A stretch of DNA of 64,000 nucleotides from Kiritimatiellia bacterium (GCA_034003585.1 JAVEYH010000004.1:16488-80487); one strand, 5' to 3'. Numbered from the stretch's first letter, positions 1 to 46,377 are shown. Notes: generated by a model from the sequence alone, not told the origin. Program-made: numbers and translations.

Positions 1-462
1 GTGCCGGCGGGCGAGGTTCAGATAGTGTTTGGCGCGTGCGGAGGGTTCGAGACGCAGGGAGGTCTCCAGAAACCGGACGGCCTGAGCGTATTCCCGCAGT
101 TCGTAGTGGCAGACGCCCAGTTCGCGGTTGGGGAAATACCCCTCAACGAAATGCAAACCGTAGGTGCGGGCGCGCCACATGTCGCGGGGGTTCGCGAACT
201 TGGCACCGCGGATCAGGCCCAGGCAGCGTTGGAAATCCGCCTGCGCCTCGGCCGTCCGCCCCTGCTTCAGCAGCGCCGCGCCGCGCGCGTAGTAGTTCCA
301 CCAGTTGTGCCGGTACAGCGTTCCGGTCCCATCCGCGGGCTCAGGTGAGCGGCAGCCGGCAAAAGCCGCCAGCAACAGGATCGCGGCGGCCGCTTGGCTC
401 CGGGAGGCTGCGCGGCGGATGCGTTCCGCTCCGGAAAACCCTCTGCCACGGGCATCCATCAT
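1..462 (-). CDS. TPR-repeat lipoprotein (3' end runs off the window start); last gene of the sigma/anti-sigma operon
   Basis: Manual minus-strand translation, frame with codons ending at 300, 297 and so on. Start MMDARGRGFSGAERIRRAASRSQAAAAILLLAAFAGCRSPEPADG has a lipobox LAAFAGC. It is followed by TPR-like helices (WNYYARGAALLKQGRTAEAQADFQRCL...HYLNLARR). The frame is open to position 1. This gene is absent from the ORF track. Confidence 0.55.
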   Translation of the reverse strand, partial: MMDARGRGFSGAERIRRAASRSQAAAAILLLAAFAGCRSPEPADGTGTLYRHNWWNYYARGAALLKQGRTAEAQADFQRCLGLIRGAKFANPRDMWRARTYGLHFVEGYFPNRELGVCHYELREYAQAVRFLETSLRLEPSARAKHYLNLARRH

Positions 463-476
463 GGGTCACCTCTGCG

Positions 477-1253
477 TTATGCGCCTCCGGCATCCCCTTT
501 GCGCACCAGATCCTGGATCATGTTTTCGGCGGAGGAGCCGGCTTGACGGAGAAAGGCGTCCACGCCGGAGTACTGGCCGGTCCAATCGCCCACCGTACGC
601 GGGCCCGCTTTCGCATGCACGGTCACGGAAAGGGCGCCGCCGCGCAATTCCCGCACGCGCATCGAGAACTCCAGTCCCGCGGGCAGGACATCCGAACGCT
701 GCGCGAGCGCCGTGCGCAGGGCGGCGTTCAGCGCGATCTGGCACCGTTTGACCTCATAGCGGGTGAGGGCCTTGACCCCCGGTTCCCGCTGCTCCGTCCC
801 CCGCAGCACCAGAGGCTCGAACGACGGCCGCGTCCACACGGGCGTGTCCGAATAGCGGAAAGCGGGCAGCAGCAGCACATAGAGGGCCGCGGCCAGACTC
901 CCGACCCCTGCGGCAGCGCGGATCGAAAAGGTCATCCACCCGGTCACACCCCTGCGCCGTGCCGCGCGCGGCGCTTCCGCCTCCCAGGAGCGGACAGCCG
1001 CCGTGACGAGCCGATCCCCCTCCTCCTCTGCCGGAGCCGTCTGACGCAGGGCGACCCGCAGTACCCGTTCCATCCGGCGCGACTCCGCGAGCCGTTTCCG
1101 CAGCTCCGGATCCGCGGCCGCCTCGCGCTCGAACGCCCGCCGCGGCCCGCGTTTCAGTTCCCCGTGCAGAAAGGCCCACAGCCTCTCTTCCCGCGCGGTT
1201 GTGTCTTCCGTATTCACCTTGTGCCCCCCTCTTCCGGCGCCGGCCTGTTCCAC
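477..1253 (-). CDS. Anti-sigma factor, single-pass membrane protein
   Basis: GTG start (revcomp of cac at 1251-1253) with an in-frame stop immediately upstream. N-terminal LWAFLHGEL...FERE...DPELRKRL resembles the anti-sigma N-domain. It has one TM segment (LAAALYVLLLPAF) and a periplasmic C-domain. It lies directly downstream of the ECF sigma gene on the same strand. Confidence 0.55.
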   Translation of the reverse strand: MEQAGAGRGGHKVNTEDTTAREERLWAFLHGELKRGPRRAFEREAAADPELRKRLAESRRMERVLRVALRQTAPAEEEGDRLVTAAVRSWEAEAPRAARRRGVTGWMTFSIRAAAGVGSLAAALYVLLLPAFRYSDTPVWTRPSFEPLVLRGTEQREPGVKALTRYEVKRCQIALNAALRTALAQRSDVLPAGLEFSMRVRELRGGALSVTVHAKAGPRTVGDWTGQYSGVDAFLRQAGSSAENMIQDLVRKGDAGGA

Positions 1254-1362
1254 CGCCTATCCGTACTGTCGCACGACCCCGGCCAAATCTTCCCGAAAAA
1301 AAAGTCCGCGTCCTTCCCCGGAAGAGTCGGAGGAAGGCGCGGCGTCCGGTGCGGGTCTGCCG

Positions 1363-1968
1363 TCACGGCTGCGGCGGGTCATCCGACGCGCTCAGCCGGG
1401 CGCGGAGTTTCTCGAGTCCGCGCGAGAGCCTGCTGCCGACCGTATTGATTGGGATCCGGTGTTTTTCGGAGAGGTCGCGATAAGAAAGCCCTTCGGCATA
1501 AAACTCCCGGATCAGACCGCGGCTGGGGGCATCCAGTTCCGCCAGCGCGCGCCGCACCGCCGCGGCGCGCTCCCCGCGCACCAGTTCGGCAACCGGGTCG
1601 AAGGCCGGTCCCGCGGTTGGCTCGCGCTCTTGCCATTCGCCGTCCTCGTCCCACTCTCCCAGCGGCAGCCACCGGCGTTCCTCCCGGATCCGCCTGCGGA
1701 GCCGGTCAATGCAGTGGTGGAAACAGATCCGCTTCACGAAAGCAGGCAGGGCGCGCTCGTCTTTCAGACGGTCCACCGACCGCGTGATGGCGAGTCGGAT
1801 GCCTTGCGCGACATCCTGGCGGGTGTGGAAATCGAAATGCCATTTCGGCCAGGATACGATGGATACGATCACCGGGTCATAGGCCTCAAAAAAACGTTCC
1901 CACGCCGCGGCGTCATTCCGCAGTAGGGCTTCGGTCAGGGTATTATCCGAAACAAGGTCCGCTTGCAC
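1363..1968 (-). CDS. ECF (sigma-70 family, group IV) RNA polymerase sigma factor
   Basis: Sigma-70 region 2 (ERFFEAYDPVIVSIV...) and region 4 HTH (LSYRDLSEKHRIPINTVGSRLSRGLEKLRARL). The track ORF starts at TTG 2136. Region 2 begins about 10 aa after a GTG at 1968 (VQADLVSDNTLTEALL), which is proposed as the start. The start is uncertain. Confidence 0.75.
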   Translation of the reverse strand: MQADLVSDNTLTEALLRNDAAAWERFFEAYDPVIVSIVSWPKWHFDFHTRQDVAQGIRLAITRSVDRLKDERALPAFVKRICFHHCIDRLRRRIREERRWLPLGEWDEDGEWQEREPTAGPAFDPVAELVRGERAAAVRRALAELDAPSRGLIREFYAEGLSYRDLSEKHRIPINTVGSRLSRGLEKLRARLSASDDPPQP

Positions 1969-2125
1969 ACAGAAAACTCCTTGAAGAACATTGACAACAT
2001 ACCGGTTTTTATGGGAAGAAGGAAGTCCTTTCAAACGACAGTACGCAATGTCGGGGAACCGGGTTTCCCGGCCCGCCGGGAACGGCGGGGCCGTCACGGC
2101 CGGAAACGGCCGGAGGGAACGCGCG

Positions 2126-3916
2126 ATGTGTCGCAATCAGACAATAACCGGACAGGCGGGAACGGCACGGATCGCGGACCGCAAACGCCGCGCGTTTGCG
2201 GCGGCGGCGCTCCTGCTCATCGCGCGGACCGCCCGGCCGGAAAGCTTCACGATCCAGACCCCGGCCGGCCCCATCCCGATCCCCCTCACGCATGTCGGCC
2301 CCGGCGGCACGGCCCTGCGTCCCGCGGCCCCGTCCGTGCCGGCGTTCACCGCGCCGACCATCTTCTCCGCGCCGCTGCCCAGCGGTTCGGGCGCGCGGGC
2401 CCTCGGTCTGGCCGGCGCCTTCACCGCGGTGGCGGACGACGCCACGGCCGCCTCGTGGAACCCCGCCGGACTCACCCAGCTCGAACGACCCGAGTTCTCG
2501 CTCGTCTACCGGCTGGACCGGGAGCACAACCGCCACTGGTCCGGCGATGACGGCTACCGTGTGGGGGACGACGATTTCTACGGCAACGCGCTCAACTACC
2601 TGAGCGCGGTGATACCCTTCCGGATGTTCGAGCGGAACGCGGTCTTCTCCCTCAACCTCCAGGAAGTTTTCGATTTCACCCAGCGGTTCCATGCCGATTT
2701 CTCGCGGCGCTCCTCCAGCGCGGAACGCCGCACGGACAGCGGCTCTTCCAGCGAGACGCTCCACTACCCGTATGATTTCACGGACGAAAACGGGTACGGG
2801 TATCGCCTTGACATCACCGAGTACCTCACGACCCACCGCTTCGCCACGCTCTACCAGCAACTGGCCTCCGGCACGCTGGGACGTCTGCATTTTGACCAGG
2901 AGGGGAGCGTGCAGGCGTTCAGCCCGGCCCTGGCGGTCGAGATCACCCCGCGCTTTTCCCTCGGCATCGCCGTGAACGTCTATCAGGACGCCCTGCTGGG
3001 CGCGGACAAGATCCGCTCGCACACGCGCGCCCGGTATTCGGGCCAGTTGGACAGCCGCGCGCAGATCACGGAGACCCAAACCACCTCGGGCCAATGGGAA
3101 TATTCGGGCGAATACACCAGTCCCAGCCTGTCGATCCCTCTGGACCCGGAGTCCGGCGAGGTACCGCCCTATTCGACCACGGAGACCACGGATGAGCTGA
3201 CCCAACTGCAGTATGAGGGGTATTACGATGTGGCGGACCGCATCGATGATTTCCGCGGCATCAACGCCACCCTCGGCGCGATGTGGCACGCCACCGAGAA
3301 GCTGACCTTCGGCTTCTGCCTCGACCTGCCCTGGACCGCGCGCGCGCGCCAAACCAAAACCGTGCGCGCCGGCGTCCGGGTGCCGGGCCACCCGGAAGCC
3401 GACACCGAGACGTTTTCGCGCATCGCCAAGGATGTCGCGTTCGACTTTCCGCTCTACTGGGCGCTGGGCGCGGCCTGGCACTGGAACAACCGGCTCACGA
3501 CCTCGCTGGACCTCAGCCAGACCCAGTGGTCCCGTTACGCGTTCAAGGCCGACGGCGAACCCCGCACCAACCCGCTGGACGGCTCGCGCCACGGGGACCA
3601 CCCGATCGACGACTGCTGGGCGGTCCACACCGGCACGGAGTATCTTTGGGTGCTCGCCCGCACGGAGATCCCGTTCCGCGCCGGCGTTTTCTGGGAGCAG
3701 CGCCCGGCGATCGGTTCTCCTGACGAGTACTGGGGCTTCAGCCTCGGCTCCGGGTTCTCGATCGGCAAAGGCGAAAACAAGGTGATCTTCGACGTGGCGT
3801 ATCTTTTCTCCTGGGGGAACGACGTGATGGGAACGCTGGTTCCCGGACAGAAGGACACCCTGGGCACGGATGTGCAGCGGCATGAGGTTTTTCTCTCGTG
3901 TATCTACCACTTTTAG
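2126..3916 (+). CDS. FadL/TodX-family outer-membrane beta-barrel channel (hydrophobic-compound transporter family)
   Basis: NPAG motif near the N-terminus (ASWNPAGL) and long beta-rich sequence. C-terminal aromatic residue (…SCIYHF) is typical of OMP barrels. Signal-like N-terminus after ATG 2126 (MCRNQ…RRAFAAAALLLIARTA). Divergent from the ECF sigma gene. Confidence 0.65.
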   Translation: MCRNQTITGQAGTARIADRKRRAFAAAALLLIARTARPESFTIQTPAGPIPIPLTHVGPGGTALRPAAPSVPAFTAPTIFSAPLPSGSGARALGLAGAFTAVADDATAASWNPAGLTQLERPEFSLVYRLDREHNRHWSGDDGYRVGDDDFYGNALNYLSAVIPFRMFERNAVFSLNLQEVFDFTQRFHADFSRRSSSAERRTDSGSSSETLHYPYDFTDENGYGYRLDITEYLTTHRFATLYQQLASGTLGRLHFDQEGSVQAFSPALAVEITPRFSLGIAVNVYQDALLGADKIRSHTRARYSGQLDSRAQITETQTTSGQWEYSGEYTSPSLSIPLDPESGEVPPYSTTETTDELTQLQYEGYYDVADRIDDFRGINATLGAMWHATEKLTFGFCLDLPWTARARQTKTVRAGVRVPGHPEADTETFSRIAKDVAFDFPLYWALGAAWHWNNRLTTSLDLSQTQWSRYAFKADGEPRTNPLDGSRHGDHPIDDCWAVHTGTEYLWVLARTEIPFRAGVFWEQRPAIGSPDEYWGFSLGSGFSIGKGENKVIFDVAYLFSWGNDVMGTLVPGQKDTLGTDVQRHEVFLSCIYHF

Positions 3917-3927
3917 CGGAGTCGCGC

Positions 3928-4524
3928 ATGATGAGACGTCCGGTACAGAGTCGGATCCGGCTGGCCCTCGCCGGGTGCCTGGCGGCGACCGCGTTCGCGG
4001 CGTCCGCGCAGAACGGTGTCCGCGAAAACGGCGAGACGCCGGAGGCGCTCGCGCGCCGCGCCGCCGCCGCGGAGCGGGCCTGCCGGACCAATGAGGCGAT
4101 CTCCCTGTATGAGCGGCTGATCGGACGCGACGCCTCCCGCGAGCCGCTGGCCGTGGCGCGGCTGGCCGAACTCCACGCCGGCCGCGGGGACGCGCGCGAG
4201 GCCCTCGCCTGGGCCGCGCGCGCTGCGGCGCGCCACCCCGCTCCCCAGGCGTATCAGGCGGGCGTGCTGACGCGCCTCGGCCAACTCAGCGAGGCCGACC
4301 TGCTGCTGCGCGAGGCCCTCGCCCGCGAAACCGAACCCCGCCGCCGCGTGCCGCTGCTCTGGCAGCAGGCCGAGGTCCAGGAGCGTCTCGGCCAAACGGC
4401 GGCGGCCCTGTCCACCCTGCGCGCGGCGCGCGGCCTTGTCGAGGACCCCGCGACGCGGGGCGTGACCGACCGACGCCTCGCTGAGCTGGAACGCCGCGCC
4501 GCCGCGCCGGAGAAAAGCCCATGA
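3928..4524 (+). CDS. Secreted TPR-like helical-repeat protein
   Basis: ATG ATG at 3928/3931. Signal peptide MMRRPVQSRIRLALAGCLAATAFAASAQ. Ala/Leu/Arg-rich helical repeats. Its stop overlaps the start of the giant gene (ATGA at 4521-4524). Confidence 0.5.
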   Translation: MMRRPVQSRIRLALAGCLAATAFAASAQNGVRENGETPEALARRAAAAERACRTNEAISLYERLIGRDASREPLAVARLAELHAGRGDAREALAWAARAAARHPAPQAYQAGVLTRLGQLSEADLLLREALARETEPRRRVPLLWQQAEVQERLGQTAAALSTLRAARGLVEDPATRGVTDRRLAELERRAAAPEKSP

Positions 4525-7500
4525 AAACCCACGTCCCCTACACCTTGCCGCAATGCGCCGCCCGAATCTTCGGGATGCTCCGGCTGGCAGCCTGCCTCGC
4601 CGCGGCACCGCGGGCCGGGGCGGTCGATTATTTCGTGAACGATGACCTGATGCCGGACGACCAGTTCTGCACGGCACCGGGCAACGACGGCAACGACGGC
4701 CTGAGCGCCGCCGCGCCGCTGCGCTCCCCCGCCGCGCTGCTGAGCCGCTACACGCCTGTTGTCGGCGACACGCTTTACATCGACTCCGGAACCTATGCGC
4801 TAACCCAGGATCTGGAGCTGCCGAGCACGGGCCCCGGCGACCCCGGCTCCGGTCCCTGGCTCCGCGTGATCGGCACAGGCCAAACGGTCCTGGATCGGCT
4901 GAACCCCGGCGCGGAGAGCTGCTGCGTGCGCGTCCGCCAGGATTGCACCCGCATCGAAGGGCTGATCTGCCGCAAGGCGGGCACCGGCATCCGCATCCAT
5001 CCGGAGACGTGCCGCAACGCCGTTCTGGAACAAAACACCCTGACCGCCAACACGGTTGCGGGCGTGGCGATCGGAGCCGACCCCGGCAGCGAGGGGCATG
5101 ACACGTACACGCTCCGCAACAACCTCTGCCACAACAACCCGACCGGCATCGATGTGCAGGGAGGCGACGGGTTCCATCTGGCCTACGCCACCCTCGAGAA
5201 CAACACGATCGTGGTGTACAACGGCAACGGCGTGGTTTGCGGCGGACGCGCCGGAGGCATGACGCTGCGCAACAACATCATCTCGGTCAAGGGCGACGGC
5301 GCCTGCCTCGCCATCACGCAGGCCGGCGCCATCGGCTCCTCGGATTTCAATAATCTCCACGCATATGGCGAAGGCCGCATCGCGCAGCAACTTGAAGAAA
5401 ACACGCTCCACCTCTTTTCCACGCTCTCCGCCTGGCGCGCCGCGAGCGGTTTCGATTACGCGAGCCTGAACCGCGATCCGCTTTTCGTGCAGCCGGAAAC
5501 CGGAAACTTCCACTTGAGCAGCCGCGAGGGCTCCTGGCGGAAAACAGGCTGGGCCGCGGATCCGGTGACCAGCCCCTGCCTCGACGCGGGCGACCCCTCT
5601 TCGCCGATCGGCGGCGAGCCGGCGCCCAACGGCAACCGCGTCAACCTCGGTGCGTTCGGCGGCACCCCGGAAGCCTCGCTGAGCGAACCCGGCCGGACGC
5701 TCACCCTGCTCGCCCCGCTCGGGGGAGAGTCCTGGAGCGGCGACGGGGTCACGGTGGCGTGGAACGGCACCGGCGCCGGTTGGAGCGCGGAAGATACGGT
5801 ACGCCTCGAGTGGGCCGTTGCCGGCACCGGTTCCTATACCTTCTGGGAGACGCTGCCGGACGCCTCGGCCCTCGCCCCGCAGGGCCGTTACGTCTGGCAT
5901 CCGCCCGCCAACGGCACCGCCAGTTACCTGCTGCGCGTGGTCTGCAATGCGGACGCGGCCGTGTCCGCGATGACCGCGCAGGCGGGCACGGTGGTGCGTC
6001 AGCCCCGCACCTATTACGTCAACGATGCGTCGGTGGAGGGCGACCTCTTCTGCGCCGGGCCGGGCAACGACGGCAACACCGGGCAGTCGACGAACAGCCC
6101 GCTCCCGTCGCTCCAAAAACTGTTGGCGCAGTATACGCTTCAACCCGGCGACACCGTATACGCCGACACCGGGCTGTATAATCTGGACAGCAACGTCGTC
6201 ATCGACGCCCAACACAGCGGTTCGGCGGAACTGCCCGTCACCCTGATCGGCGCGCGCGGCGGCACGCGCCTGATCCGTTCCGCGAACGGCTCGGACCGCT
6301 GTTGCCTCGACGTCAAGGCCGACCACCTCCGCATCGGGGGGTTCGCCTGCGAATCCGCCGAGATCGGCATCCGGATCCAGGCCGACGCGGCGCGGCACGT
6401 CCGTTTGACGGCGAACCGCTGCCGCAGCAACAGCGTCTGCGGCATCCAGATCACACCGATGGCAGGCGGCTACGGCGAGATGTTTCAACTGCTGCAGAAT
6501 GTGGTGACGGATAACGGCGCGGGGTTGTATCTGCAGGGTGACGCCGACGTGTGGGGAGGGCGCGCGCAGTTTTTGATTGAGAACAACACCATCCGCAACA
6601 CGGGGCACGCCGTGTACCTGCTGAACGGCAACCGGGTCGCGCGCCGCATCAATGTGCTGAAGAACAACATCCTCGTCGCCACCGGCGGAGAGAGCGCCTG
6701 CATCGCGGCCTTGATCAAATCGGTGCACTATTCCGATTACAACGTGCTGCGGGCCCCCAACGGCTCGGTCGGACACTTGTTCTACGATCCCGCTGACCCC
6801 GACCCAACCCCCCTGACCGATCTTTCGCTTTGGCGCACCGCCACGGGCGGACAGGATTCGCACAGCCTCTCCGCCGACCCGCTTTTCGTTTCCCCCGCGC
6901 AGGACGATTTCCGGCTGCGTTCCGACTCCCCCTGCGCGGATGCCGGGGTGATCAGTTTCTGGATGGCGGGCTTGACGGACCCCGACGGGCAGCCGCGCGT
7001 TGCGGGCGTCACAGTTGATATCGGCGCGTACGAACTGAATGTCCGGGTCTCGCTGCGCCTGCTGCTGCAAGGCCCGTTCCAAGGATACGGCCCCACGTAT
7101 CTCATGAGCCCCGCGCTCTCCGAAAGCGGCGTTCTGCCGCTGACCTCGCCCTACGCCGATGACCCGCGCCGCGTCACGCAAATTCCCCAGGGAGTCACCG
7201 ATTGGGTCCTGCTCCAGTTCCGCCGCGCACCCGCCGCACCGTCCCTCCTCACAACCAGCGCGTTCCTGCGGCAGGACGGGTGGGTCGTGGGCGAGGATGG
7301 CTCGACCAACCTCGTTCTCAATCTTCCCCGAACCAACACCTATCATGTGGTCGTCAAACACCGCAACCACCTCGCTGCCATGTCGGCCCAAGCCGTCGGC
7401 TTCTCCGACCAAGCATTGGGTTATGACTTCACGACAGGGCCGGGGAAATACTTCGGCGGCGAAAGCGCCTGCGCCGAGGTTTCGGGGTACGCGGGAACTT

Positions 7501-10500
7501 TCTTCGCCCTCCGCGCGGGTGACGTGGACGGCGACGGCAGGGTCGGTGCCGCGGACGAGGCGGTCTGCCTCAGCATGACCGAGGCCACCGCCTCCGCATA
7601 CCGCCGTTCCGATGTGACGCTGGACGGGAGCGTCACCTTCCAGGATGATTGGACCCCCGTCGCCGCCGCCGCGGTTTCAAACTCCGTTTCGCCGGTGCCC
7701 AACCCCGGCACGGCACTGACCGGCGCCCTCTGGGTCAAACCCTCCCGCGCGACCCTCGCCCCCGGAGGTTCGCTCGCCCTCACCTGTCCCGCATATGCCG
7801 TCTCCAACACTTCCGCCGCTGCCGCCGTGCGCGCCGTGACGTTCAATGCGAGCAATGACACCCTTGTCGCCTGGCAGTTCGCGCAGACCAACGGCAATTC
7901 GACCCTGACGGCGTCCGGCGCCGCCGCGGCGCTCTACACCGCCGGCACCGTCACCGGCGTCACCGACGTGGTGACCGCCTGGGACAGCGCGGAGCGGATC
8001 GGCCGCGCCTTCCTGAACGTGGTCGGCACGCAAACCGTGGCCGCCGCGGGGCAGGCGCTGATTCTCGCGGGCCGGACCTCGGAGAGCGACCCCCTCTGGC
8101 CCGCCACCGAGTATCTGGCGGACACCGCCTACACCACGCTGCGTTACCGGGGGTTCTCCAAAGAGACGATCCATTATTTCAGCCCCGAACCGCTTCAGGA
8201 CGTTGACGGCAACGGCGAATGGGATGACATCGACGGCGCCGCCACCCTGGCCGCCGCGGCCCACGCCTTCACCAACACGGTCACCGGCGCCAACCGCCTG
8301 CTCGTCTATCTGGTCGACCACGGCGGGTTCTCCTCCGGCGAGGGTTATTTCCGGCTCAGCAACACCAACACCCTCAGCGCGACCCAGCTCGACGCCTGGC
8401 TGGACGCGCTGCAGGACCGCGACCAGACGCCGGTCACCGTGCTGCTCGACTTCTGTTATGCCGGGAGTTTCCTTCCCGCGCTCACCTACACCGGCACCGC
8501 CGAGCGGATCGTGATCGCGGCCTGCGGCGCTGCGCAGCCCAGTTATTTCGTGTCCGGCGGACTGGTCAGCTATTCGGCCGCCTTTTTCACGGGCGTGATG
8601 CTGGGGTACGATGTGCTGGCCTGCCACGAGATGGCCCAAAACGCCATGGGCACCTATCAGACCGCGATGCTGGACGACGATCACGACGGTGCCGACACCG
8701 AAGGGGACGGGGACGTCGCGCACGTCACGGTCATCGGCCCCACGGGTGTCGCGGCGGGCGACATGCCGCAAATCGGTGAAGCCTGCGGCAACCAGGTGCT
8801 CGCGGACGGCACCTCCGCCACCCTCTGGATCGGCAGCGTCACGGGCCCGCATCCGATCGCCGAGGCCTGGTGCCACATCGTGCCGCCGGGGTATGACCCC
8901 GATCCGGACCAGCCGGTCACGGCCCTGCCGCGGTGCGGCCTCACTTACGATACCGCGAGCGGACACTACACCGTGACCTACGACGGCTTCACCGCCGCAG
9001 GCACGTATCCCATAACCTTTTATGTGCGCGACATCGAAGACAACGTTTCCCCGCCGCGCACCGTGTACATCTCGCAAGTCGGGTTCGACGACCGCGCCAT
9101 CCTGGTCGCGGGGTGCGCCACCAACAGCGCCGACTGGCCCGCGGTGCGTTACCTGACCCAGCTCGCGTACGACACCCTGCGCCTGCGCCTGTTCACCCCC
9201 GACCGGATCCGCGTGCTCGCGCCCGTGGCGGAGTGGGATCTGGACGGCGACGGCACGAACGACGTCGCGGGACTGGCCGGCACCGGCACGTTCCATCAGG
9301 CCATCACCGAGTGGGCCGGGACCCAACCGACGGACCGGCTGACTTTCCTGCTGCTCGGCCAGGGCGTGAGCAACGCGCTGTGCCTCACCGCGGAAGAACG
9401 CCTTTCCGCCAACGCGCTCGCCGACCGGCTCCACGCGTACCAGAGCACCAACCCGATTCCCGTCAACCTGATCCTGGACTTCTCGGGCGCCGGCGCCTTC
9501 ATCCCCGCACTCGCCGACCCCGAACTCGCCGCCAACGCCCCGGAGGCGACCCGCATCGTGATGGCCAGCGCGCATCCGGGACGCGCGGCGCTCTTCGCCA
9601 ACAACGGCACGGTCAGCTTCTCGCAATACCTGCTCTCCGGCGTCATCGCGGGCAAAACGCTCGGCGACGCCTACACCGACGCGCGCCGCGCGATCCGCCG
9701 CATTTCCGGCAACACGCGGCAGCGCGCCCAGATTGACGACAACCTGAACGGCGAGCCCAGCGAGAAAGACACCGACGGCGCGCTGGCCGACGAGACCTAT
9801 CTCGGTTTCGCCTTCGTGACCGGCGCCGACGCGCCGGTCATCGGCTCCGTCACGCCGCGCCTCGTCTGCCCCGGCGGCCCCGTAACCCTCTGGGCCGCGG
9901 GAATCGCGGGCATGCACCCGATCTCCAACGTCTGGTGCGTGATCACCCCGCCCGGCCAGACCGGCACCGGCGACCTGCCCAGCGTCAGCCTGACATGGAA
10001 CGCGCTGTCCGAACGGTACGAGGCGGAGTGGGACGGCATGACGCAACCCGGACTCTACACGCTGACCTTCCTCGCCGCGGACACGGCGGGCCAGGTCTCC
10101 GATCCGGTCCAGTCGGAAGGGATTCTCGCCGACGCCTATGAGCCGGACGACCGGGCGGATCAGGCGGCGCTGTATGACGGAGACCCGCAGATCCGGACTC
10201 TTCATGCCACGGAGGACGAAGACTGGGTCCGCGTGTTTCTGCTCCAGGACTGGATTTACGACATCGAGACCTACCATTTCAGCGAACCGTTCGACACCAT
10301 GCTCGAACTCTACCGGGAAATGCCGGCCGGCTCCCTGGAACGCATCAATCAGGCTGACGAAGAGGGCTCGGACTCGGGCGAGTTTCTGGGAATCGATTAT
10401 CCCGAGACCGGCTGGTATTGGGTGCGGGTCCTGCCTTTCCGTGAGGGCACCAACACCCTCGGCGGATACGAACTGAGCATCGACGTGCCCGCCGCGGACG

Positions 10501-11492
10501 GGGCCGGGGCGCTGATCGTGCTGGCCGTGGACGATGTGACCCTGGGCGCCCTGCCCGCCGGTTCCTACGCCTCGGTCACCGGGCAGGGCGATCTCCCGTT
10601 CAACGGATCCAAAAACATCACCTTCACCGGCCTGCCTTACGGCACCTACCAGGTGACGGTCCCGCTTCCCGCGCACCACATCGCGCGGGAGGACCCGTCC
10701 ACCCCCGGACAGGTGCAGAGCCTGACCAACACCTATTACGCCAATCCGCGCCAGGTGGTGATCTCCGGTTCCTGGCGACTGGCCGGGTTCGAACTGCTCT
10801 CCACGCTCGCCGTCACCTCGGCTGTCGTGCGCGACGCCTACACGCACGCCTTTTTGCCGGAAGTCCGCTTCGCCTTCACGGCGGCCTCCGGCGCGCTGAC
10901 CGGACAGGTGGCGGAGGGCAGCGTCCTGCTGACCGATTACGCCGACGCCTGGCTCAGCGGGGCGGACGGGCGCGCGCCCTCCAACATCGTGCTCGGCGCC
11001 TGCGACTGGGATCTGGCCCTCTCGCTGGCAGGGTACCAGACCTCAACCGTGGCGGCAGCGGTCAGCAACCTGCCGGCCGGCGCCTCCGCCGCGCTCGGCA
11101 CGCTGTATCTGATTCCCGCAGACACCAATGCCAACACCGTGGCGGATGCGTGGGAGGCGCTGCATTTTCCCGACGGGCTCGACAAGGAGGGCGACGCCGA
11201 TGAGGACGGCCTCAGCAATTACGGGGAGTATTTGTGCGGCACCCTCCCCCACGACGCCTCCAGCGTGCTCAGCATCCTCGATGCCGCTGCCGATCCCTCG
11301 GCCGCACACCTCACTTGGGCCGTGACCGCAGGCCGCACCTACACGGTCGAGGCCTTTGAAACGCTGGGAGGCACACCGGTGACGTACGGGCCATGGGAGG
11401 CCACTACCGGCCAGACCCTCATGCAGTGGAACGACCCGGACACGTCACTCTACGCGACCCGTTTCTACCGGGTCCGCCTGCAGGAGCCCTGA
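4521..11492 (+). CDS. Giant secreted multidomain protein (2323 aa): 2 pectate-lyase-fold beta-helix domains + active clan-CD (C11/C13/caspase-like) peptidase domain + degenerate second copy + PPC-like domain + Asp-rich TSP3-like C-terminal region
   Basis: Signal peptide MKTH…LAACLAAAPRAGA. Parallel beta-helix repeats appear twice (NNLCHNNPTGIDVQGG…DPLFVQPETGNFHLSS and NNTIRNTGHAVYLL…DPLFVSPAQDDFRLRS). Clan-CD motifs LLVYLVDHGG (His1267, nt 8319-8321) and VLLDFCYAGSF (Cys1312, nt 8454-8456). The second copy has LLLGQG (Gln1614, nt 9360-9362) and ILDFSGAGAF (Ser1655, nt 9483-9485). PPC-like DEDWVRVFL…YDIETYHF. C-terminal DKEGDADEDGLSNYGEY. Confidence 0.85.
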   Translation: MKTHVPYTLPQCAARIFGMLRLAACLAAAPRAGAVDYFVNDDLMPDDQFCTAPGNDGNDGLSAAAPLRSPAALLSRYTPVVGDTLYIDSGTYALTQDLELPSTGPGDPGSGPWLRVIGTGQTVLDRLNPGAESCCVRVRQDCTRIEGLICRKAGTGIRIHPETCRNAVLEQNTLTANTVAGVAIGADPGSEGHDTYTLRNNLCHNNPTGIDVQGGDGFHLAYATLENNTIVVYNGNGVVCGGRAGGMTLRNNIISVKGDGACLAITQAGAIGSSDFNNLHAYGEGRIAQQLEENTLHLFSTLSAWRAASGFDYASLNRDPLFVQPETGNFHLSSREGSWRKTGWAADPVTSPCLDAGDPSSPIGGEPAPNGNRVNLGAFGGTPEASLSEPGRTLTLLAPLGGESWSGDGVTVAWNGTGAGWSAEDTVRLEWAVAGTGSYTFWETLPDASALAPQGRYVWHPPANGTASYLLRVVCNADAAVSAMTAQAGTVVRQPRTYYVNDASVEGDLFCAGPGNDGNTGQSTNSPLPSLQKLLAQYTLQPGDTVYADTGLYNLDSNVVIDAQHSGSAELPVTLIGARGGTRLIRSANGSDRCCLDVKADHLRIGGFACESAEIGIRIQADAARHVRLTANRCRSNSVCGIQITPMAGGYGEMFQLLQNVVTDNGAGLYLQGDADVWGGRAQFLIENNTIRNTGHAVYLLNGNRVARRINVLKNNILVATGGESACIAALIKSVHYSDYNVLRAPNGSVGHLFYDPADPDPTPLTDLSLWRTATGGQDSHSLSADPLFVSPAQDDFRLRSDSPCADAGVISFWMAGLTDPDGQPRVAGVTVDIGAYELNVRVSLRLLLQGPFQGYGPTYLMSPALSESGVLPLTSPYADDPRRVTQIPQGVTDWVLLQFRRAPAAPSLLTTSAFLRQDGWVVGEDGSTNLVLNLPRTNTYHVVVKHRNHLAAMSAQAVGFSDQALGYDFTTGPGKYFGGESACAEVSGYAGTFFALRAGDVDGDGRVGAADEAVCLSMTEATASAYRRSDVTLDGSVTFQDDWTPVAAAAVSNSVSPVPNPGTALTGALWVKPSRATLAPGGSLALTCPAYAVSNTSAAAAVRAVTFNASNDTLVAWQFAQTNGNSTLTASGAAAALYTAGTVTGVTDVVTAWDSAERIGRAFLNVVGTQTVAAAGQALILAGRTSESDPLWPATEYLADTAYTTLRYRGFSKETIHYFSPEPLQDVDGNGEWDDIDGAATLAAAAHAFTNTVTGANRLLVYLVDHGGFSSGEGYFRLSNTNTLSATQLDAWLDALQDRDQTPVTVLLDFCYAGSFLPALTYTGTAERIVIAACGAAQPSYFVSGGLVSYSAAFFTGVMLGYDVLACHEMAQNAMGTYQTAMLDDDHDGADTEGDGDVAHVTVIGPTGVAAGDMPQIGEACGNQVLADGTSATLWIGSVTGPHPIAEAWCHIVPPGYDPDPDQPVTALPRCGLTYDTASGHYTVTYDGFTAAGTYPITFYVRDIEDNVSPPRTVYISQVGFDDRAILVAGCATNSADWPAVRYLTQLAYDTLRLRLFTPDRIRVLAPVAEWDLDGDGTNDVAGLAGTGTFHQAITEWAGTQPTDRLTFLLLGQGVSNALCLTAEERLSANALADRLHAYQSTNPIPVNLILDFSGAGAFIPALADPELAANAPEATRIVMASAHPGRAALFANNGTVSFSQYLLSGVIAGKTLGDAYTDARRAIRRISGNTRQRAQIDDNLNGEPSEKDTDGALADETYLGFAFVTGADAPVIGSVTPRLVCPGGPVTLWAAGIAGMHPISNVWCVITPPGQTGTGDLPSVSLTWNALSERYEAEWDGMTQPGLYTLTFLAADTAGQVSDPVQSEGILADAYEPDDRADQAALYDGDPQIRTLHATEDEDWVRVFLLQDWIYDIETYHFSEPFDTMLELYREMPAGSLERINQADEEGSDSGEFLGIDYPETGWYWVRVLPFREGTNTLGGYELSIDVPAADGAGALIVLAVDDVTLGALPAGSYASVTGQGDLPFNGSKNITFTGLPYGTYQVTVPLPAHHIAREDPSTPGQVQSLTNTYYANPRQVVISGSWRLAGFELLSTLAVTSAVVRDAYTHAFLPEVRFAFTAASGALTGQVAEGSVLLTDYADAWLSGADGRAPSNIVLGACDWDLALSLAGYQTSTVAAAVSNLPAGASAALGTLYLIPADTNANTVADAWEALHFPDGLDKEGDADEDGLSNYGEYLCGTLPHDASSVLSILDAAADPSAAHLTWAVTAGRTYTVEAFETLGGTPVTYGPWEATTGQTLMQWNDPDTSLYATRFYRVRLQEP

Positions 11493-11520
11493 ACGGAGCG
11501 TTGCGCGTTCAAGTTCCCCT

Positions 11521-12504
11521 TTACCCTGGCCCACCCCAGCGGGCGGCGGGCTTGCCTCTGTCCTGGGCGGAGGTGTTGGCATAACAGTAGGCGCAGAGGT
11601 GGGGGCAGGTGTTATACATGCCGATATCCTTGCTGACGATGCAGCCGCACGCCTTGCGCTGGCCTTTGTCCTTGAGGTGCGGACGCGACGGGGCGGCGAA
11701 CAGATCCGGCCGGTAACCCAGGAACGCCATCAGCGCCGGGTCGTGCGGGAACAGCTCGATCATCAGGCGGTCATCGATGCAGCGGTTGTGCGAGATCCCA
11801 TATGACGCCAGATCCATTTTCTCCGCGCAGGTGGCGAGTTGCAGGCCCCACCCTTTGTTCAGCCCCGCGATCCCCGCCGCGAAGGCCCGCATTTCGTCGG
11901 GCCGGAACTCCCGTGCGCGGATCCCGGCGCGCGCGAGGTTGCGGGCCACCCTGGCATAGGTCAGGATGTCGGCAAAGCTGAACACCAGTTTCTCCGTATA
12001 CGGCGCAAGCGCGTCACCGACGCGCCGACACTTCTCCAGCAGGCCCGGCACAGACAGCGCATCCGTCAGGATCAGAGGGTCGAAGCGCCAGATGACCCGC
12101 CTCTTCCCCAGTCGTTCCGAAAGCGCCTTGAACGTCGCGATCCGTTGTGCCAGCGGCGGGACATGCGGCTCCAGTCCCTCGTTCCCATAGTCGTTGACCG
12201 TATACTGAAAGTAGTAATGGAGCCCCCGCTTCTCGATCTCCGGAAGATGGGGGATCAGGGGTTGCGGGTTCTTGCTCCAGAAGACCATGACGCGGGTTTT
12301 CCGGAAAGAGACCTCTTGCGGCACGCGGGTAAAGGGATTGATCCATTCCACAACGCCGCGTGCCAGACTCTTGACCAACCATTCCGGGAAAAAAGCGGGG
12401 ATGTCCGTGGAACGGCTGGCCGAGACGATCACCGGTTCGACCGCCGGCCGCGCCTTGCCCGTTCTCTTTTGCTGCGCATTCACGTTGCCGGTTGATGCCC
12501 CCAT
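11521..12504 (-). CDS. DUF1848-family protein (conserved C-terminal Cys cluster)
   Basis: VIVSASRSTDIPAFFPEWL near the N-terminus. C-terminal KACGCIVSKDIGMYNTCPHLCAYCYAN matches my recollection of the DUF1848 signature. Start chosen at ATG 12504 (MGASTGN…). The track ORF extends to 12801, probably through non-coding sequence. Start is uncertain. Confidence 0.55.
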   Translation of the reverse strand: MGASTGNVNAQQKRTGKARPAVEPVIVSASRSTDIPAFFPEWLVKSLARGVVEWINPFTRVPQEVSFRKTRVMVFWSKNPQPLIPHLPEIEKRGLHYYFQYTVNDYGNEGLEPHVPPLAQRIATFKALSERLGKRRVIWRFDPLILTDALSVPGLLEKCRRVGDALAPYTEKLVFSFADILTYARVARNLARAGIRAREFRPDEMRAFAAGIAGLNKGWGLQLATCAEKMDLASYGISHNRCIDDRLMIELFPHDPALMAFLGYRPDLFAAPSRPHLKDKGQRKACGCIVSKDIGMYNTCPHLCAYCYANTSAQDRGKPAARWGGPG

Positions 12505-12565
12505 GAAAACACCGGTAGTGTAACCATTCCGTTTCCCGTGGAAAGGACAATATGGCGGAGGCATG

Positions 12566-12594
12566 TTGACGCTCATAAGGTATTCTGGTACCAT
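12566..12594 (+). promoter_or_regulatory. Candidate sigma-70-like promoter upstream of nirBD (TTGACG -17 bp- TACCAT) in an AT-rich divergent intergenic region
   Basis: TTGACG at 12566-12571, 17-nt spacer, TACCAT at 12589-12594. The region is locally AT-rich relative to the ~67% GC background. No experimental support. Confidence 0.2.
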
Positions 12595-12673
12595 AATGCT
12601 TCTTTTGTCCGCAGCGGACAGCGGGTAAACAGGCACAGGACCTCCATTTTTAACGAAAGCACCAAGTAAAACC

Positions 12674-15397
12674 ATGGGGATTAGGCAAAAACTCGTCATC
12701 ATCGGCAGTGGCATGGCCGGCGGCAAACTCGCGGAAGAACTTGTCGCGCGCGCCCCTGAGCGGTTCGATCTCACCGTCATCGGGAACGAACCCCACGGCA
12801 ACTACAACCGGATCAAGCTGGTCGTGAAGCTCAAGGAGCCCGACTTGCCTGACCTGTTCCTGAACACGTCCCGTTGGTACGCCGAGAACGGCATCATCGC
12901 CTGCCTGGGTCATGCCGCGAAGTCCATCGACCGTCAGGCCAAAACGGTCAGCACGGCCGACGGCAGCATCTTTCCCTATGACCGCCTGGTGCTGGCGACC
13001 GGCTCGCACCCGATCATCCCGCCCATGAAAGGGCTGGACCTGCCGGGCGTGTTCGCGCTCCGCCGCCTCGACGATGTCGCGCGCGTCACCGACTATTTGC
13101 GCGACAAGCACGAGGTGACCGTGGTCGGCGGCGGACTGCTGGGACTGGAACTCGCGCTCATGCTGCGCCTGCTCGGCAAACGCGTCACGGTCTCCCACCT
13201 CATGCCGACCCTGATGGAGATGCAGCTTCCGGAAGAGGCGGGCCGCTACCTGCAGCGTCATCTGGAAGGCCTCGGCATCTCGTTCGTCATGGGCACCTAC
13301 ATCACCGAACTGCTTGGCTCAACAGCCGGCGTTGCCGAAGCCCGCTTCAAAGACGGCAGCGCGATCACGACCGACGCCGTTTTCTTCAACTGCGGGATCC
13401 GCCCCAACATCGACCTCGCCCAGGCTGCCGGTCTCCTCTGCAACAAAGGCATCGCGGTCAACGCACGCCTCCAGACCAGCGAGCCTGACATCTACGCCTG
13501 CGGCGAGTGTGTCGAGTTCAAGGGACAGACCTGGGGCCTGGTCGCGCCGGTCTATGAGCAGGCCCGGACACTGGCCGCCGTGCTATGCGGCGAGGACGCC
13601 GTTTACGCGCCCGCGAACACAACGCCCACACGCCTCAAATCCGACATCCCCGTGATCAGCATGGGGACCTTCAAGCCGGACGCGCACGACGAAGTGACGC
13701 TGTTCACCGACCCGGCATCCGCGACCTACAAGCAGTTGATCATCCGCGACAACACGCTCGTCGGCGCGGTGCTTGTCGGCGAAGATCTCAACGCCGACCT
13801 GATCGGCCTGCACTACACCGCAAAAATCCCAGTCCCGTCCCGCCGCGCCGACCTGCTCTTTCCCGGCGCCCGCGCCGGTGACGCCATCGTTGACGGCACC
13901 CTCATTCCCGACGAAGCCCAGGTCTGTGACTGCAACGGCGTCTCCGCCGGCACCATCCGCCGCTCGATCCATCAGGGGCATGACACGCCCTTGAAGGTCA
14001 TGACCAACACCAAAGCCGGCACGGGCTGCGGCAACTGCAAGAACAAGATCAAGGCCTTGCTCATCTCCGAAATCGGGGAACTGCGGGCCGATCCGGCCGA
14101 ACACTATTACGTGCCCGGCATCGCCATGGACCGGCCGGCGCTGACCGCGTTCATCCGCGCGAACGGGCTGCGCGCCGTGTCGCATATCCTGGCCGCAATC
14201 CCCGGAGCAACCGACGACTCGAAAACCCGCATGGGTCTGGATTACCTGCTCAACTACATCTGGCACGCAGAGTATACGGTCGAAAACGACGCCCGTTGCG
14301 CCAATGACCGCTATTCCGGCAACATCCAGAACGACGGCCGCTACAGCGTGATCCCCAGCATCCCCGGCGGCGTCGCCACAGCCGCGCAGCTCCGGGCCAT
14401 CGCCGAAGTGGCTGACCGGTACGGCGCCATGATCAAGGTGACCGGCTCCGACCGCATCGGCCTTTATTCGATCCAGAAAAAAGACCTGCGGGAGGTCTGG
14501 CGCAGCCTGCAGATGAATTCGGGACACGCCTTTACCAAGAGTTTCCGCGCCTGCAAATCGTGTGTGGGTGCCACGCACTGCCGGTTCGGCTTGATGGATT
14601 CGCTCGCGCTGGGACAGCGCCTGGGCAACCGCTACCGCGGCGTGATGGGGCCGGCCAAGGTCAAGCTGGGCGTCTCCGGCTGTCCCCGCAACTGCTCGGA
14701 GGCCACAATCAAAGACTTCGGCGCCGTGGCCGTGGAAGGCGGCTGGGATATCTACATCGGCGGCAACGGCGGCGCACACGTCTACGTCGCCCAAAAGATA
14801 GCGCAGGTCAAGACCGATGACGAGGTCGTCCGCATCTGCGACCGGTTTTACGAATACTTCCGCCGCCACGCGAAATATGGCGAACGCTCGGCGCACTTCG
14901 TGGAACGCCTCGGCCTCAAGACCGTCGCCGATGCCATCTTGAACGCGCCTCCGCAGGAGCTGGAAGAACTCGAAACGCGGTTTCAGCAGACGCTCGACCG
15001 TTACCGCGATCCGTGGCAGGACGAGGTCTCTCTCGACAACGAATCGGTCGGCGCAACCGACCGCGATGCGGAGGGCTTCACCGTGCTTGCCAACAGCTCC
15101 GACATCCCGGTTGGCACCTCCCGACTCTTCCACATCGACGACACACCCGTCGCCGTCTTCCACGGACGCGACGGGAGCTGGGTGGCAGCGCACGGCGTCT
15201 GCCCGCACAAGAGCGGCCCGCTCGTCGACAGCATCTACGGCAATGGCCGGCTGTTCTGCCCACTCCACAGCTATTCGTTCGATGTCGTGACCGGCGCATG
15301 CGACAATCCCGATATCCGACCGGTTCAGATTTACGAAACCGCTGTCAGCGACGGGCGGCTCAAGGTTCGCCTCGTGCCCGGCGACACAGCCCGATAA
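12674..15397 (+). CDS. nirB: Assimilatory NAD(P)H nitrite reductase, large subunit fused to Rieske small subunit (NirB-NirD fusion)
   Basis: N-terminal FAD/NAD Rossmann fold (KLVIIGSGMAGG). BFD-like 2Fe-2S domain (CDCNGVSAGTI…CGNC). Sirohaem/4Fe-4S nitrite-sulfite reductase motifs (CKSCVGATHC, GCPRNC). C-terminal Rieske NirD motifs (CPHKSGPL…CPLHSYSF). Confidence 0.9.
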   Translation: MGIRQKLVIIGSGMAGGKLAEELVARAPERFDLTVIGNEPHGNYNRIKLVVKLKEPDLPDLFLNTSRWYAENGIIACLGHAAKSIDRQAKTVSTADGSIFPYDRLVLATGSHPIIPPMKGLDLPGVFALRRLDDVARVTDYLRDKHEVTVVGGGLLGLELALMLRLLGKRVTVSHLMPTLMEMQLPEEAGRYLQRHLEGLGISFVMGTYITELLGSTAGVAEARFKDGSAITTDAVFFNCGIRPNIDLAQAAGLLCNKGIAVNARLQTSEPDIYACGECVEFKGQTWGLVAPVYEQARTLAAVLCGEDAVYAPANTTPTRLKSDIPVISMGTFKPDAHDEVTLFTDPASATYKQLIIRDNTLVGAVLVGEDLNADLIGLHYTAKIPVPSRRADLLFPGARAGDAIVDGTLIPDEAQVCDCNGVSAGTIRRSIHQGHDTPLKVMTNTKAGTGCGNCKNKIKALLISEIGELRADPAEHYYVPGIAMDRPALTAFIRANGLRAVSHILAAIPGATDDSKTRMGLDYLLNYIWHAEYTVENDARCANDRYSGNIQNDGRYSVIPSIPGGVATAAQLRAIAEVADRYGAMIKVTGSDRIGLYSIQKKDLREVWRSLQMNSGHAFTKSFRACKSCVGATHCRFGLMDSLALGQRLGNRYRGVMGPAKVKLGVSGCPRNCSEATIKDFGAVAVEGGWDIYIGGNGGAHVYVAQKIAQVKTDDEVVRICDRFYEYFRRHAKYGERSAHFVERLGLKTVADAILNAPPQELEELETRFQQTLDRYRDPWQDEVSLDNESVGATDRDAEGFTVLANSSDIPVGTSRLFHIDDTPVAVFHGRDGSWVAAHGVCPHKSGPLVDSIYGNGRLFCPLHSYSFDVVTGACDNPDIRPVQIYETAVSDGRLKVRLVPGDTAR

Positions 15398-25811: not shown

Positions 25812-25869
25812 GCCGACCTCCTTTTTATCATTTCCCACCCCTCTGCGATCACGCCCCGCACAAACTCTT

Positions 25870-46301: not shown

Positions 46302-46377
46302 GGGGGTATAGCTCAGTTGGTAGAGCGCTTGAATGGCATTCAAGAGGTCGGGGGTTCGACTCCCCCTACCTCCACCA
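46302..46377 (+). tRNA. tRNA-Ala (anticodon GGC), CCA encoded
   Basis: Cloverleaf folded by hand. Acceptor GGGGGTA/TACCTCC with G3:U70. Anticodon loop ATGGCAT. T-arm GGGGGTTCGACTCCCCC. 3' ACCA. Confidence 0.9.

Follow-up and report, generated by a model that had tools for sequence, protein, structure and literature searches.

A recurrent Kiritimatiellia gene cassette linking an ECF sigma factor to a FadL-type outer-membrane protein and clan-CD proteases: a candidate envelope signalling unit

The DNA under study (hereafter the window) is a stretch of 64,000 nucleotides (nt) from a Kiritimatiellia bacterium, of which both strands were scanned (128 kb), and it begins with a locus of two divergently transcribed operons. 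One side of the locus encodes a sigma factor of the extracytoplasmic function (ECF) type, a single-pass anti-sigma factor and a lipoprotein with TPR repeats, and the other an outer-membrane protein (OMP) of the FadL/TodX family, a small secreted TPR protein and a giant secreted protein (Table 1). An original prediction, made by reading this DNA, had described these genes as a candidate surface-signalling unit, and all of them are present where it placed them. The G+C content of the locus region is about 68% and the third-position G+C agrees with the gene set. The genes of the outer-membrane operon are tightly packed, with 11 nt between OMP and small TPR gene, and the overlap of the small TPR stop with the giant start, already pointed out in that prediction, is read as an ATGA at 4521–4524. 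On the other side the window ends within the lipoprotein gene. Past this edge the sequence can be followed on a public contig, L094, that shares 100% identity with window positions 1–4130; its gene call agrees with the sigma start in the window, its full TPR lipoprotein has 715 amino acids (aa), and a further gene overlaps the lipoprotein gene by 17 nt. The product of this further gene begins with a cytoplasmic motif, GGVNAWK, and a membrane helix, and since these features are the hallmarks of the protein found at the same position in other genomes, the gene bears the hallmarks of one encoding a membrane-anchored caspase/CHAT protein. The view that the sigma operon ends with the TPR lipoprotein therefore reflected the window edge, and the protease beyond it had been missed.

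Table 1. Features of the locus in window coordinates, with the cyclase-containing fusion proteins of other phyla given in the coordinates of their own loci.
Feature	Position	Strand	Evidence and remarks
TPR lipoprotein, N-terminal 154 aa	1..462	-	translation; TPR_1/TPR_2 matches; lipobox FAGC; cut by window edge
Single-pass anti-sigma factor, 246 aa	477..1217	-	alternative upstream start 1253
ECF-type promoter motif GGGAAG-N17-CGAC	1268..1294	-	T-run before, AGTAC after; about 50 nt upstream of anti-sigma start
ECF (group 4) sigma factor, 201 aa, GTG start	1363..1968	-	TIGR02937, Sigma70_r4_2
ECF-type promoter motif GGGAAG-N17-CGAC, extended TTTTATGGGAAGAAGGAAG...CGACAGTAC	2013..2039	+	87 nt upstream of OMP start
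Predicted 5' untranslated leader of OMP operon	2046..2125	+	RNA fold
Extended FadL/TodX-family OMP, 596 aa	2126..3916	+	Pfam Toluene_X; AlphaFold2 model
Small secreted (periplasmic) TPR protein, 198 aa	3928..4524	+	weak TPR matches; signal peptide
Secreted giant protein, 2323 aa	4521..11492	+	Pfam, NCBIfam, orthologue comparison
C-terminal 130-aa module of the giant	11100..11489	+	homologue search
Fusion proteins of other phyla	L054 6487-9864; L060 4091-7390; L062 367-3684; L063 5902-9153; L070 4563-7244; L073 13547-16720; L077 14980-18162; L056 5599-8871		

The sigma factor scores above the cut-offs of TIGR02937 (62.8 bits versus 42.9) and Sigma70_r4_2 (35.5 versus 25.7), with a region 2 match of 19.5 bits that stays below its cut-off of 24, and it consists of sigma-2 and sigma-4 domains only, which places it among the ECF (group 4) factors; no subfamily model matched it at cut-off. 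The downstream gene, which adjoins the sigma gene in 26 loci of the survey described below, encodes a single-pass anti-sigma factor. A Pfam search gave no match for the window protein itself; 14 of 17 members of its family match zf-HC2 (PF13490; best E 1.5e-5), the family profile is weakly similar to RslA of Mycobacterium tuberculosis (3hug_B, E 0.12), and an identical protein (P0273) carries the JGI label 'anti-sigma factor RsiW'. FecR, DUF4880 and DUF4974 were found at E≤1 neither in the window protein nor in the 17 family members. In the protein, a helical anti-sigma-like domain at the N-terminus is joined by a single transmembrane helix to a periplasmic domain of some 110 aa, which is conserved and for which Pfam and NCBIfam hold no model. 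Only seven columns of the family alignment are invariant, and two of these form an Arg-Gly pair located some 20 residues past the membrane helix (R151-G152, counted along the 258-aa form).

We have carried out an unbiased count of bipartite words over 30 sigma-OMP intergenic regions, using shuffled sequences as control, and observed that GGGAA...CGAC occurs on the OMP strand in 11 of the 30 regions, as compared with a maximum of 5 in the shuffled set. The extended consensus is composed of a T-run, GGGAAGAA, a spacer of 16–17 nt and CGAC(T/A)nTA. Both window sites fit the form TTTT-GGGAAGAA-N12-CGACnnTA. The one preceding the OMP gene scores 34.5 bits (31.7 in a leave-one-out analysis) and the second copy, placed after the sigma stop and ahead of the anti-sigma start, scores 30.5 bits, whereas the next-best score elsewhere in the 64 kb, on both strands, is 12.9 bits. 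A strict form of the pattern is found within 250 nt upstream of the OMP gene at 10 loci, where about 0.5 are expected, and just upstream of the anti-sigma gene at 12 loci (about 0.2 expected). These sites have the geometry of ECF promoters. An ECF-type bipartite motif thus does precede the outer-membrane operon, lying 87 nt before position 2126, which agrees with the signalling unit first proposed; the copy before the anti-sigma gene had, like the caspase/CHAT protease, gone unnoticed. The motif precedes the OMP operon and the anti-sigma operon alike and so ties both to one regulator, and we infer, from the sequences compared, that the sigma factor of the locus reads both sites.

We regard it as quite improbable that the motif is instead the site of another regulator, or a clade-specific promoter element, with the sigma factor controlling other genes. 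Its spacing, fixed at 16–17 nt, its orientation and its distance from the downstream genes correspond to a promoter, the two copies are the only ones in 64 kb, and the motif goes along with the sigma gene: using the leave-one-out matrix, 13.7 bits or more are reached by all 11 sigma-bearing loci whose OMP identity is 50% or higher, whereas two sigma-less loci of similar OMP identity score 2.6 and 3.2 bits. In favour of this alternative, the sigma gene is devoid of the motif, the AAC that typifies many ECF promoters is missing from the −35 element GGGAAG, and in L086, a sigma-less locus at a greater distance, a match of 16.3 bits is seen upstream of the OMP gene; on the other hand, CGAC −10 elements are known for ECF sigma factors such as SigX of Bacillus subtilis.

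Downstream of the motif, the predicted leader of the OMP operon is GC-rich and folds into three hairpins (−49.8 kcal/mol, z −3.5), with the start-codon region paired in the fold and a near-palindrome, GGGGAACCGGGTTTCCC, contained within it (window 2046–2130 (+)). According to this folding model the leader could act as a translational or attenuation element. An Rfam search of the locus returned no known RNA, and a scan of positions 1100–2300 and 11300–12000 for sigma-70-type promoters and terminators gave nothing useful. Other conserved elements are seen in the sigma-OMP intergenic regions of Pontiella-type loci (L023, L024, L028, L031–L034, L036, L037, L039, L042, L043 and L045), many of which contain the palindrome GTGGGGGAATCCCCCAC and most of which carry the related GTGGTAnAAnCCCCCAC immediately before the OMP start; these elements may be the site of another regulator or an RNA element.

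The OMP matches Pfam Toluene_X (PF03349) with 47.3 bits, above the gathering cut-off of 29.7, and its AlphaFold2 model (predicted local distance difference test score, pLDDT, of 82) has the FadL fold, with a 14-stranded barrel and an N-terminal hatch, so that the family assignment originally made on the basis of motifs holds. The same Pfam family is found, among the matches listed, in all but one of 120 homologues, and 871 relatives were retrieved at E≤1e-5, the named ones all from Kiritimatiellia or "Lentisphaerae/Verrucomicrobia" metagenome-assembled genomes (MAGs). The protein has a signal peptide, and a search of its sequence against solved structures returned no match. Its fold is as near to FadL as to any other structure, the similarity to BamG being equal to that to FadL, and about 340 of its 596 residues can be aligned to these structures. 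The remainder comprises an N-terminal extension, clade-specific and about 45 aa long, and strands of 36–53 residues at positions ∼170–388. The surface lipoprotein BamH is held by an extracellular pillar that strands 3–7 of BamG build (PMC12611786), and by analogy the long strands of the OMP can be read as an extracellular β-pillar, with a presumed outward orientation. Conservation, analysed in an alignment of 29 homologues, is highest in the hatch, whose segment SGSGARALG...DDATAASWNPAGL is near-invariant; within the SWNPAGL stretch N112 and P113 are invariant and G115 is present in at least 90% of the sequences, and the same applies to the consensus C-terminus HF, with H595 invariant and F596 in at least 90%. 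The NCBIfam FadL equivalog gives 17 bits versus a cut-off of 585, and the protein is thus not an orthologue of Escherichia coli FadL; PorV_fam reaches 39.3 bits versus 90, as a local N-terminal match only, and BamG 41.6 versus 250. No TonB box is present, as first proposed, and no STN domain; the OMP is not a TonB-dependent transducer. No signalling domain or contact site for the anti-sigma factor was identified in it.

Being a match to Toluene_X above cut-off, with a fold as near to FadL as to any structure and with the NPAG hatch motif as its most conserved part, the OMP might be taken for a conventional FadL/TodX channel importing a hydrophobic compound, its neighbours forming a catabolic or stress regulon without physical coupling to it. 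We consider such ordinary uptake highly improbable: there are no adjacent genes for fatty-acid or aromatic catabolism, those downstream encoding a DUF1848 protein and a NirB-like reductase; some 250 extra residues form a long β-extension unlike anything in transport FadLs; the FadL equivalog score falls far short; and the linkage to LpoB-like lipoproteins and clan-CD proteases holds across phyla, as described below.

The survey of gene neighbourhoods covered 47 non-redundant loci of Kiritimatiellia type, many of which lie on short contigs. The sigma factor is present in 35, the anti-sigma factor in 26, the TPR lipoprotein in 39, the caspase/CHAT protein in 32 and a homologue of the giant in 28, and the divergent arrangement of sigma and OMP genes is seen in about 30 loci; the association of sigma factor, OMP and giant postulated for the window is accordingly kept across Kiritimatiellia. 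The whole seven-gene layout recurs in neighbourhoods with 52–70% OMP identity, where one side consists of sigma factor, anti-sigma factor, a TPR/Glucodextran_B lipoprotein of about 715 aa and a Peptidase_C14/CHAT plus CsgG-like protein of about 700 aa, and the other of OMP, small TPR protein and a giant of 2300–3700 aa. Two MAGs contain three separate modules each, and in some modules other large proteins are encoded, with PKD/F5_F8 type C, Laminin_G_3 or Chlam_PMP domains. Such recurrence in dozens of genomes puts the arrangement far beyond chance. The gene of the giant is followed, in several close relatives, by one for a PAS-HisKA histidine kinase (L001 15939–17054, L003 19550–20668), and this gene has no counterpart in the window.

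The orthologues allow the domain composition of the periplasmic components to be described. The full TPR lipoprotein, assigned to the outer membrane, comprises TPR repeats, a Glucodextran_B-like β-sandwich, an LpoB/CsgG-like domain and a FlgT_C-like domain, and its lipobox is kept. The small TPR protein has a signal peptide whose Cys is not conserved, and orthologues occupy the same position in 15 of the 47 loci. The Kiritimatiellia caspase/CHAT protein, anchored in the inner membrane, is formed by a short cytoplasmic tail, a membrane helix and then the caspase and LpoB-like domains, which, being placed after the helix, are predicted to be periplasmic. In the cassettes these proteins share, on the cytoplasmic side and N-terminal to the membrane helix, the conserved motif GG(V/A)NAWK(I)N(R) (L094 5800–6102; L001 283–2400; L003 4045–6171), and this motif hints at a cytoplasmic partner. 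A CsgG channel was considered and rejected for the CsgG-like domains, the matches spanning profile positions ∼43–105 of 210 and overlapping the LpoB matches, as befits a shared α/β domain and not a channel.

Our preferred reading, which we hold tentatively and with somewhat less than even confidence, is that the locus is an ECF-sigma-controlled envelope signalling and output unit, and one copy of a Kiritimatiellia cassette that often occurs several times per genome. Once released, the sigma factor would raise the OMP, the small TPR protein and the giant through the motif preceding the OMP operon, and would also raise its own inhibitor together with the lipoprotein and protease genes, resulting in negative feedback. 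The OMP, the lipoprotein and the caspase-like protease might form an envelope-spanning complex, which would sense an event at the outer membrane or the cell surface, for instance a hydrophobic ligand, or the state of a giant docked on the OMP β-pillar. The complex would then inactivate the anti-sigma factor, probably through a cut in its periplasmic segment at the invariant Arg-Gly. Several elements fit this cleavage idea: the invariance of the pair itself, the periplasmic location predicted for the caspase domain, the preference of bacterial C14 orthocaspases for cleaving after Arg or Lys, and the precedent of regulated proteolysis freeing sigma factors from anti-sigma factors, as in RseA/DegS. 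A further precedent is that of Csx29, which reportedly cuts an inhibitor of an ECF sigma factor. This TPR-CHAT protease of type III-E CRISPR systems is coupled to an ECF sigma factor (PMC10028731). With respect to the surface-signalling unit of the original prediction, the part with good support is the connection of the OMP operon to the sigma factor through the motif, and the part that remains conjectural is the entry of the signal through the OMP.

The giant has a cleavable signal peptide and two right-handed β-helix modules (about residues 35–400 and 500–860) that match Beta_helix, NosD, Disaggr_assoc and choice_anch_Q, followed by two clan-CD (legumain/caspase-like) domains. In the first of these the dyad consists of His1267 in VDHGG (nt 8319–8321) and Cys1312 in LDFCYAGSF (nt 8454–8456), both kept in all giant orthologues, and the domain is predicted on this basis to be an active peptidase. 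The second (∼residues 1560–1760) is degenerate, with Gln1614 and Ser1655 at the dyad positions and the dyad lost in every orthologue. Peptidase_C13 is matched by orthologues (30.7 bits versus a cut-off of 22.8) and the window giant has a sub-threshold caspase match only. The label of protease-lyase given to this protein is thus half retained: the clan-CD dyad of the first domain speaks for the protease, and for the lyase there is nothing beyond the right-handed β-helix matches. The adhesin role that was likewise suggested for it stays conjectural. A search against solved structures produced chance-level matches only. After the clan-CD domains the protein continues with β-sandwich domains and a C-terminal module of 130 aa, made up of a TSP3-like DxDxDG calcium-type motif and a β-sandwich ending in FYRVRL, for which Pfam and NCBIfam have no model. 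The module is always at the extreme C-terminus of the homologues, 85 of 111 near-full matches ending within 8 residues of it, and is found at E≤1e-10 in 223 representative proteins, most of them from the giant's own family. An exhaustive search gave 4954 matches, and as 46 of 53 long carriers share further homology with the giant, we rejected the idea of a general sorting tag and treat the module, from these comparisons, as a family feature with few unrelated carriers. At one related locus (L091) the OMP gene is in fragments (2960–4607), through a frameshift or as a pseudogene, and the sigma factor, C13 proteins and proteins with the C-terminal module are kept.

The position of this module also speaks for the main rival explanation, which has a real, if minor, chance of being the correct one and is compatible with signalling. 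It holds that the locus serves surface display or anchoring: the OMP would dock the giant in the way BamG docks BamH or PorV the cargo of the type IX secretion system (T9SS), the small TPR protein would act as a periplasmic chaperone and the clan-CD proteins would process cargo, while the sigma pair, answering to general envelope stress or to the load of cargo, would merely set expression, with no sensor role for the OMP. The tight coupling of the OMP, small TPR and giant genes is what one would expect of such a system, as is a module invariably at the extreme C-terminus that also ends non-homologous neighbours of OMP paralogues (the Laminin_G_3 protein of L088 and proteins of L021 and L087). 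Moreover, a FadL-like OMP is near all four sampled module-bearing proteins, and several modules per genome have differing large proteins. These carriers have to be set against the 46 of 53 that are merely relatives of the giant, and it is also true that about 40% of the Kiritimatiellia loci have no giant homologue nearby, that no route across the outer membrane was identified, and that elsewhere the core of OMP, lipoprotein and CHAT protein occurs without such cargo and is linked to cyclases instead.

Indeed, OMPs with about 30% identity are still linked to genes for TPR/LpoB-like and CHAT-like proteins in Desulfobacterota, Nitrospirae, Brocadiaceae and others, in loci that contain no sigma factor and no C-terminal module of the giant's type. 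In the anammox bacterium Candidatus Kuenenia hertensis (L072 2982–11260) the operon encodes, in this order, a CHASE2-adenylate/guanylate cyclase, a caspase-PEGA protein, a TPR-Glucodextran_B-CsgG/LpoB-FlgT_C lipoprotein and a FadL-type OMP. In eight Desulfobacterota and Nitrospirae loci the OMP is adjoined by a single fusion protein of about 900–1125 aa, in which a cyclase, CHAT, one membrane helix near residue 650, TPR repeats, CsgG/LpoB and FlgT_C follow one another (TPR repeats being matched in seven of the eight and FlgT_C in one), with the cyclase and CHAT cytoplasmic and the CsgG/LpoB-like domains periplasmic. This cyclase-CHAT-LpoB architecture appears to be undescribed. On sequence grounds, the deeper conserved core is the combination of a FadL-type OMP with LpoB/CsgG-like periplasmic proteins, and its apparent wiring to different transducers across phyla points to envelope sensing; it is the strongest comparative argument for the signalling reading. 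A bolder form of that reading, rather unlikely when taken in full, would see here an undescribed, envelope-spanning machine of FadL-type OMP, LpoB/CsgG-like proteins and clan-CD protease, carrying out TonB-independent signalling in Kiritimatiellia with the periplasmic caspase as site-1 protease at Arg-Gly and the giant produced under the freed sigma factor and docked by its C-terminal module on the OMP β-pillar, and possessing a simpler form in Desulfobacterota, Nitrospirae and anammox bacteria.

Some observations weigh against sigma-controlled signalling through the OMP. The region upstream of the sigma gene contains no copy of the motif, the best score being −0.2 bits, and sigma autoregulation was rejected on this ground; a sigma gene without its own target motif is unusual for ECF factors. 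In a Pontiella-type clade GGGAAG-N17-CGAC is absent, with the different conserved palindrome GTGGGGGAATCCCCCAC in its place. Three loci (L012, L016 and L022, the last from the cultured Pontiellaceae isolate B12227) keep OMP, lipoprotein, caspase, TPR protein and giant and miss the sigma/anti-sigma pair, which implies that the core has a function beyond gating this anti-sigma factor. The structure model of the anti-sigma factor, built from an alignment of three sequences, is of low confidence (pLDDT 57.9), and Foldseek with this model yielded only weak matches to TolB N-terminal domains (E ∼0.03–0.1). That the periplasmic domain of the anti-sigma factor shares the LpoB-like fold was also considered, and hhalign against LpoB-like modules was negative. 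Finally, FadL-family proteins are expected to have their N-terminus within the barrel or outside it and not in the periplasm, and the 45-aa extension could not be linked to the sigma factor: all Kiritimatiellia-type OMPs have it with or without sigma, so that its presence follows the clade and any association is confounded by phylogeny.

Known systems that connect the cell surface to ECF sigma factors use TonB-dependent transducers (Fec, Fpv and the Bacteroides polysaccharide utilization loci, PULs). The cassette resembles Fec (FecA/FecR/FecI) and the ECF/anti-sigma/SusC units of PULs in having an ECF sigma factor and a single-pass anti-sigma factor beside an OMP gene, a putative sigma-type promoter before the OMP operon and an output in surface or uptake functions. 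Contrary to the 22-strand transducers of these systems, the OMP has a 14-strand FadL fold with no plug, STN domain or TonB box; the anti-sigma factor does not match the FecR/DUF4880 type; a TPR-LpoB lipoprotein and a caspase/CHAT protease are added; and the motif precedes the anti-sigma gene and not the sigma gene. As for T9SS, the OMP is below the PorV cut-off, the giant has no match to the T9SS C-terminal domain, the proteases are C14/CHAT and, in the giant, C13-like, whereas PorU is C25, and no other T9SS genes are seen in the cassette loci; to our knowledge, T9SS is not known in the Planctomycetes-Verrucomicrobia-Chlamydiae (PVC) group. BamG differs in that the OMP falls below its NCBIfam cut-off, is present in multiple copies per genome and has a much longer extension, no bamA having been found in the neighbourhoods examined. 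The proposed logic is the same as that of RseA/DegS/RseP, in which a signal at the outer membrane leads a periplasmic protease to cut the anti-sigma factor and free the ECF sigma factor; there the protease is a PDZ serine protease, whereas the candidate here is of clan CD, no site-2 protease is encoded in the locus, and cleavage is only proposed. The Csx29-Csx30/RpoE system shares with the cassette a clan-CD TPR-CHAT protease genetically coupled to an ECF sigma factor; it is cytoplasmic and RNA-guided, whereas the cassette caspase is predicted to be periplasmic and has envelope proteins as partners.

Literature on ECF and FadL proteins of Kiritimatiellota, FadL in cell-surface signalling, PorV in Verrucomicrobia and the reclassification of ECF factors contained no description of this architecture, in agreement with the original prediction. 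The familiar part is the ECF sigma factor with its anti-sigma factor and an OMP gene as target, and the new part the FadL-fold barrel, the LpoB-like lipoproteins and the clan-CD proteases. If true, a FadL-fold transducer with a caspase-like protease would widen the known routes by which information crosses the Gram-negative outer membrane, and would add to the picture emerging from PorV and BamG of FadL-family barrels as protein-docking scaffolds and not lipid channels only. The cassette is present in most sampled Kiritimatiellia genomes, often in multiple copies with different giants, and hence it likely matters for building and regulating the surface of these polysaccharide-degrading PVC bacteria. 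The cyclase fusions of other phyla suggest that one outer-membrane sensor core may be wired to different cytoplasmic outputs.

Outside the locus, the genes that follow the giant after position 11492 are unrelated to it: a DUF1848 gene (11521–12801 (−)) diverges from one for a NirB-like nitrite/sulfite reductase to which a Rieske domain is fused (12674–15397 (+)), and since their longest open reading frames have about 130 nt in common at the 5' ends, one or both of the true starts must lie further in. Two further large genes are found at 23151–28620 (−); the product of one (895 aa) has an autotransporter-type PATR repeat and that of the other (916 aa) a β-helix and a GH141-like insertion, and the C-terminal module of the giant is absent from both. 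The sole Rfam match in the 64 kb corresponds to a tRNA gene at 46302–46374 (+).

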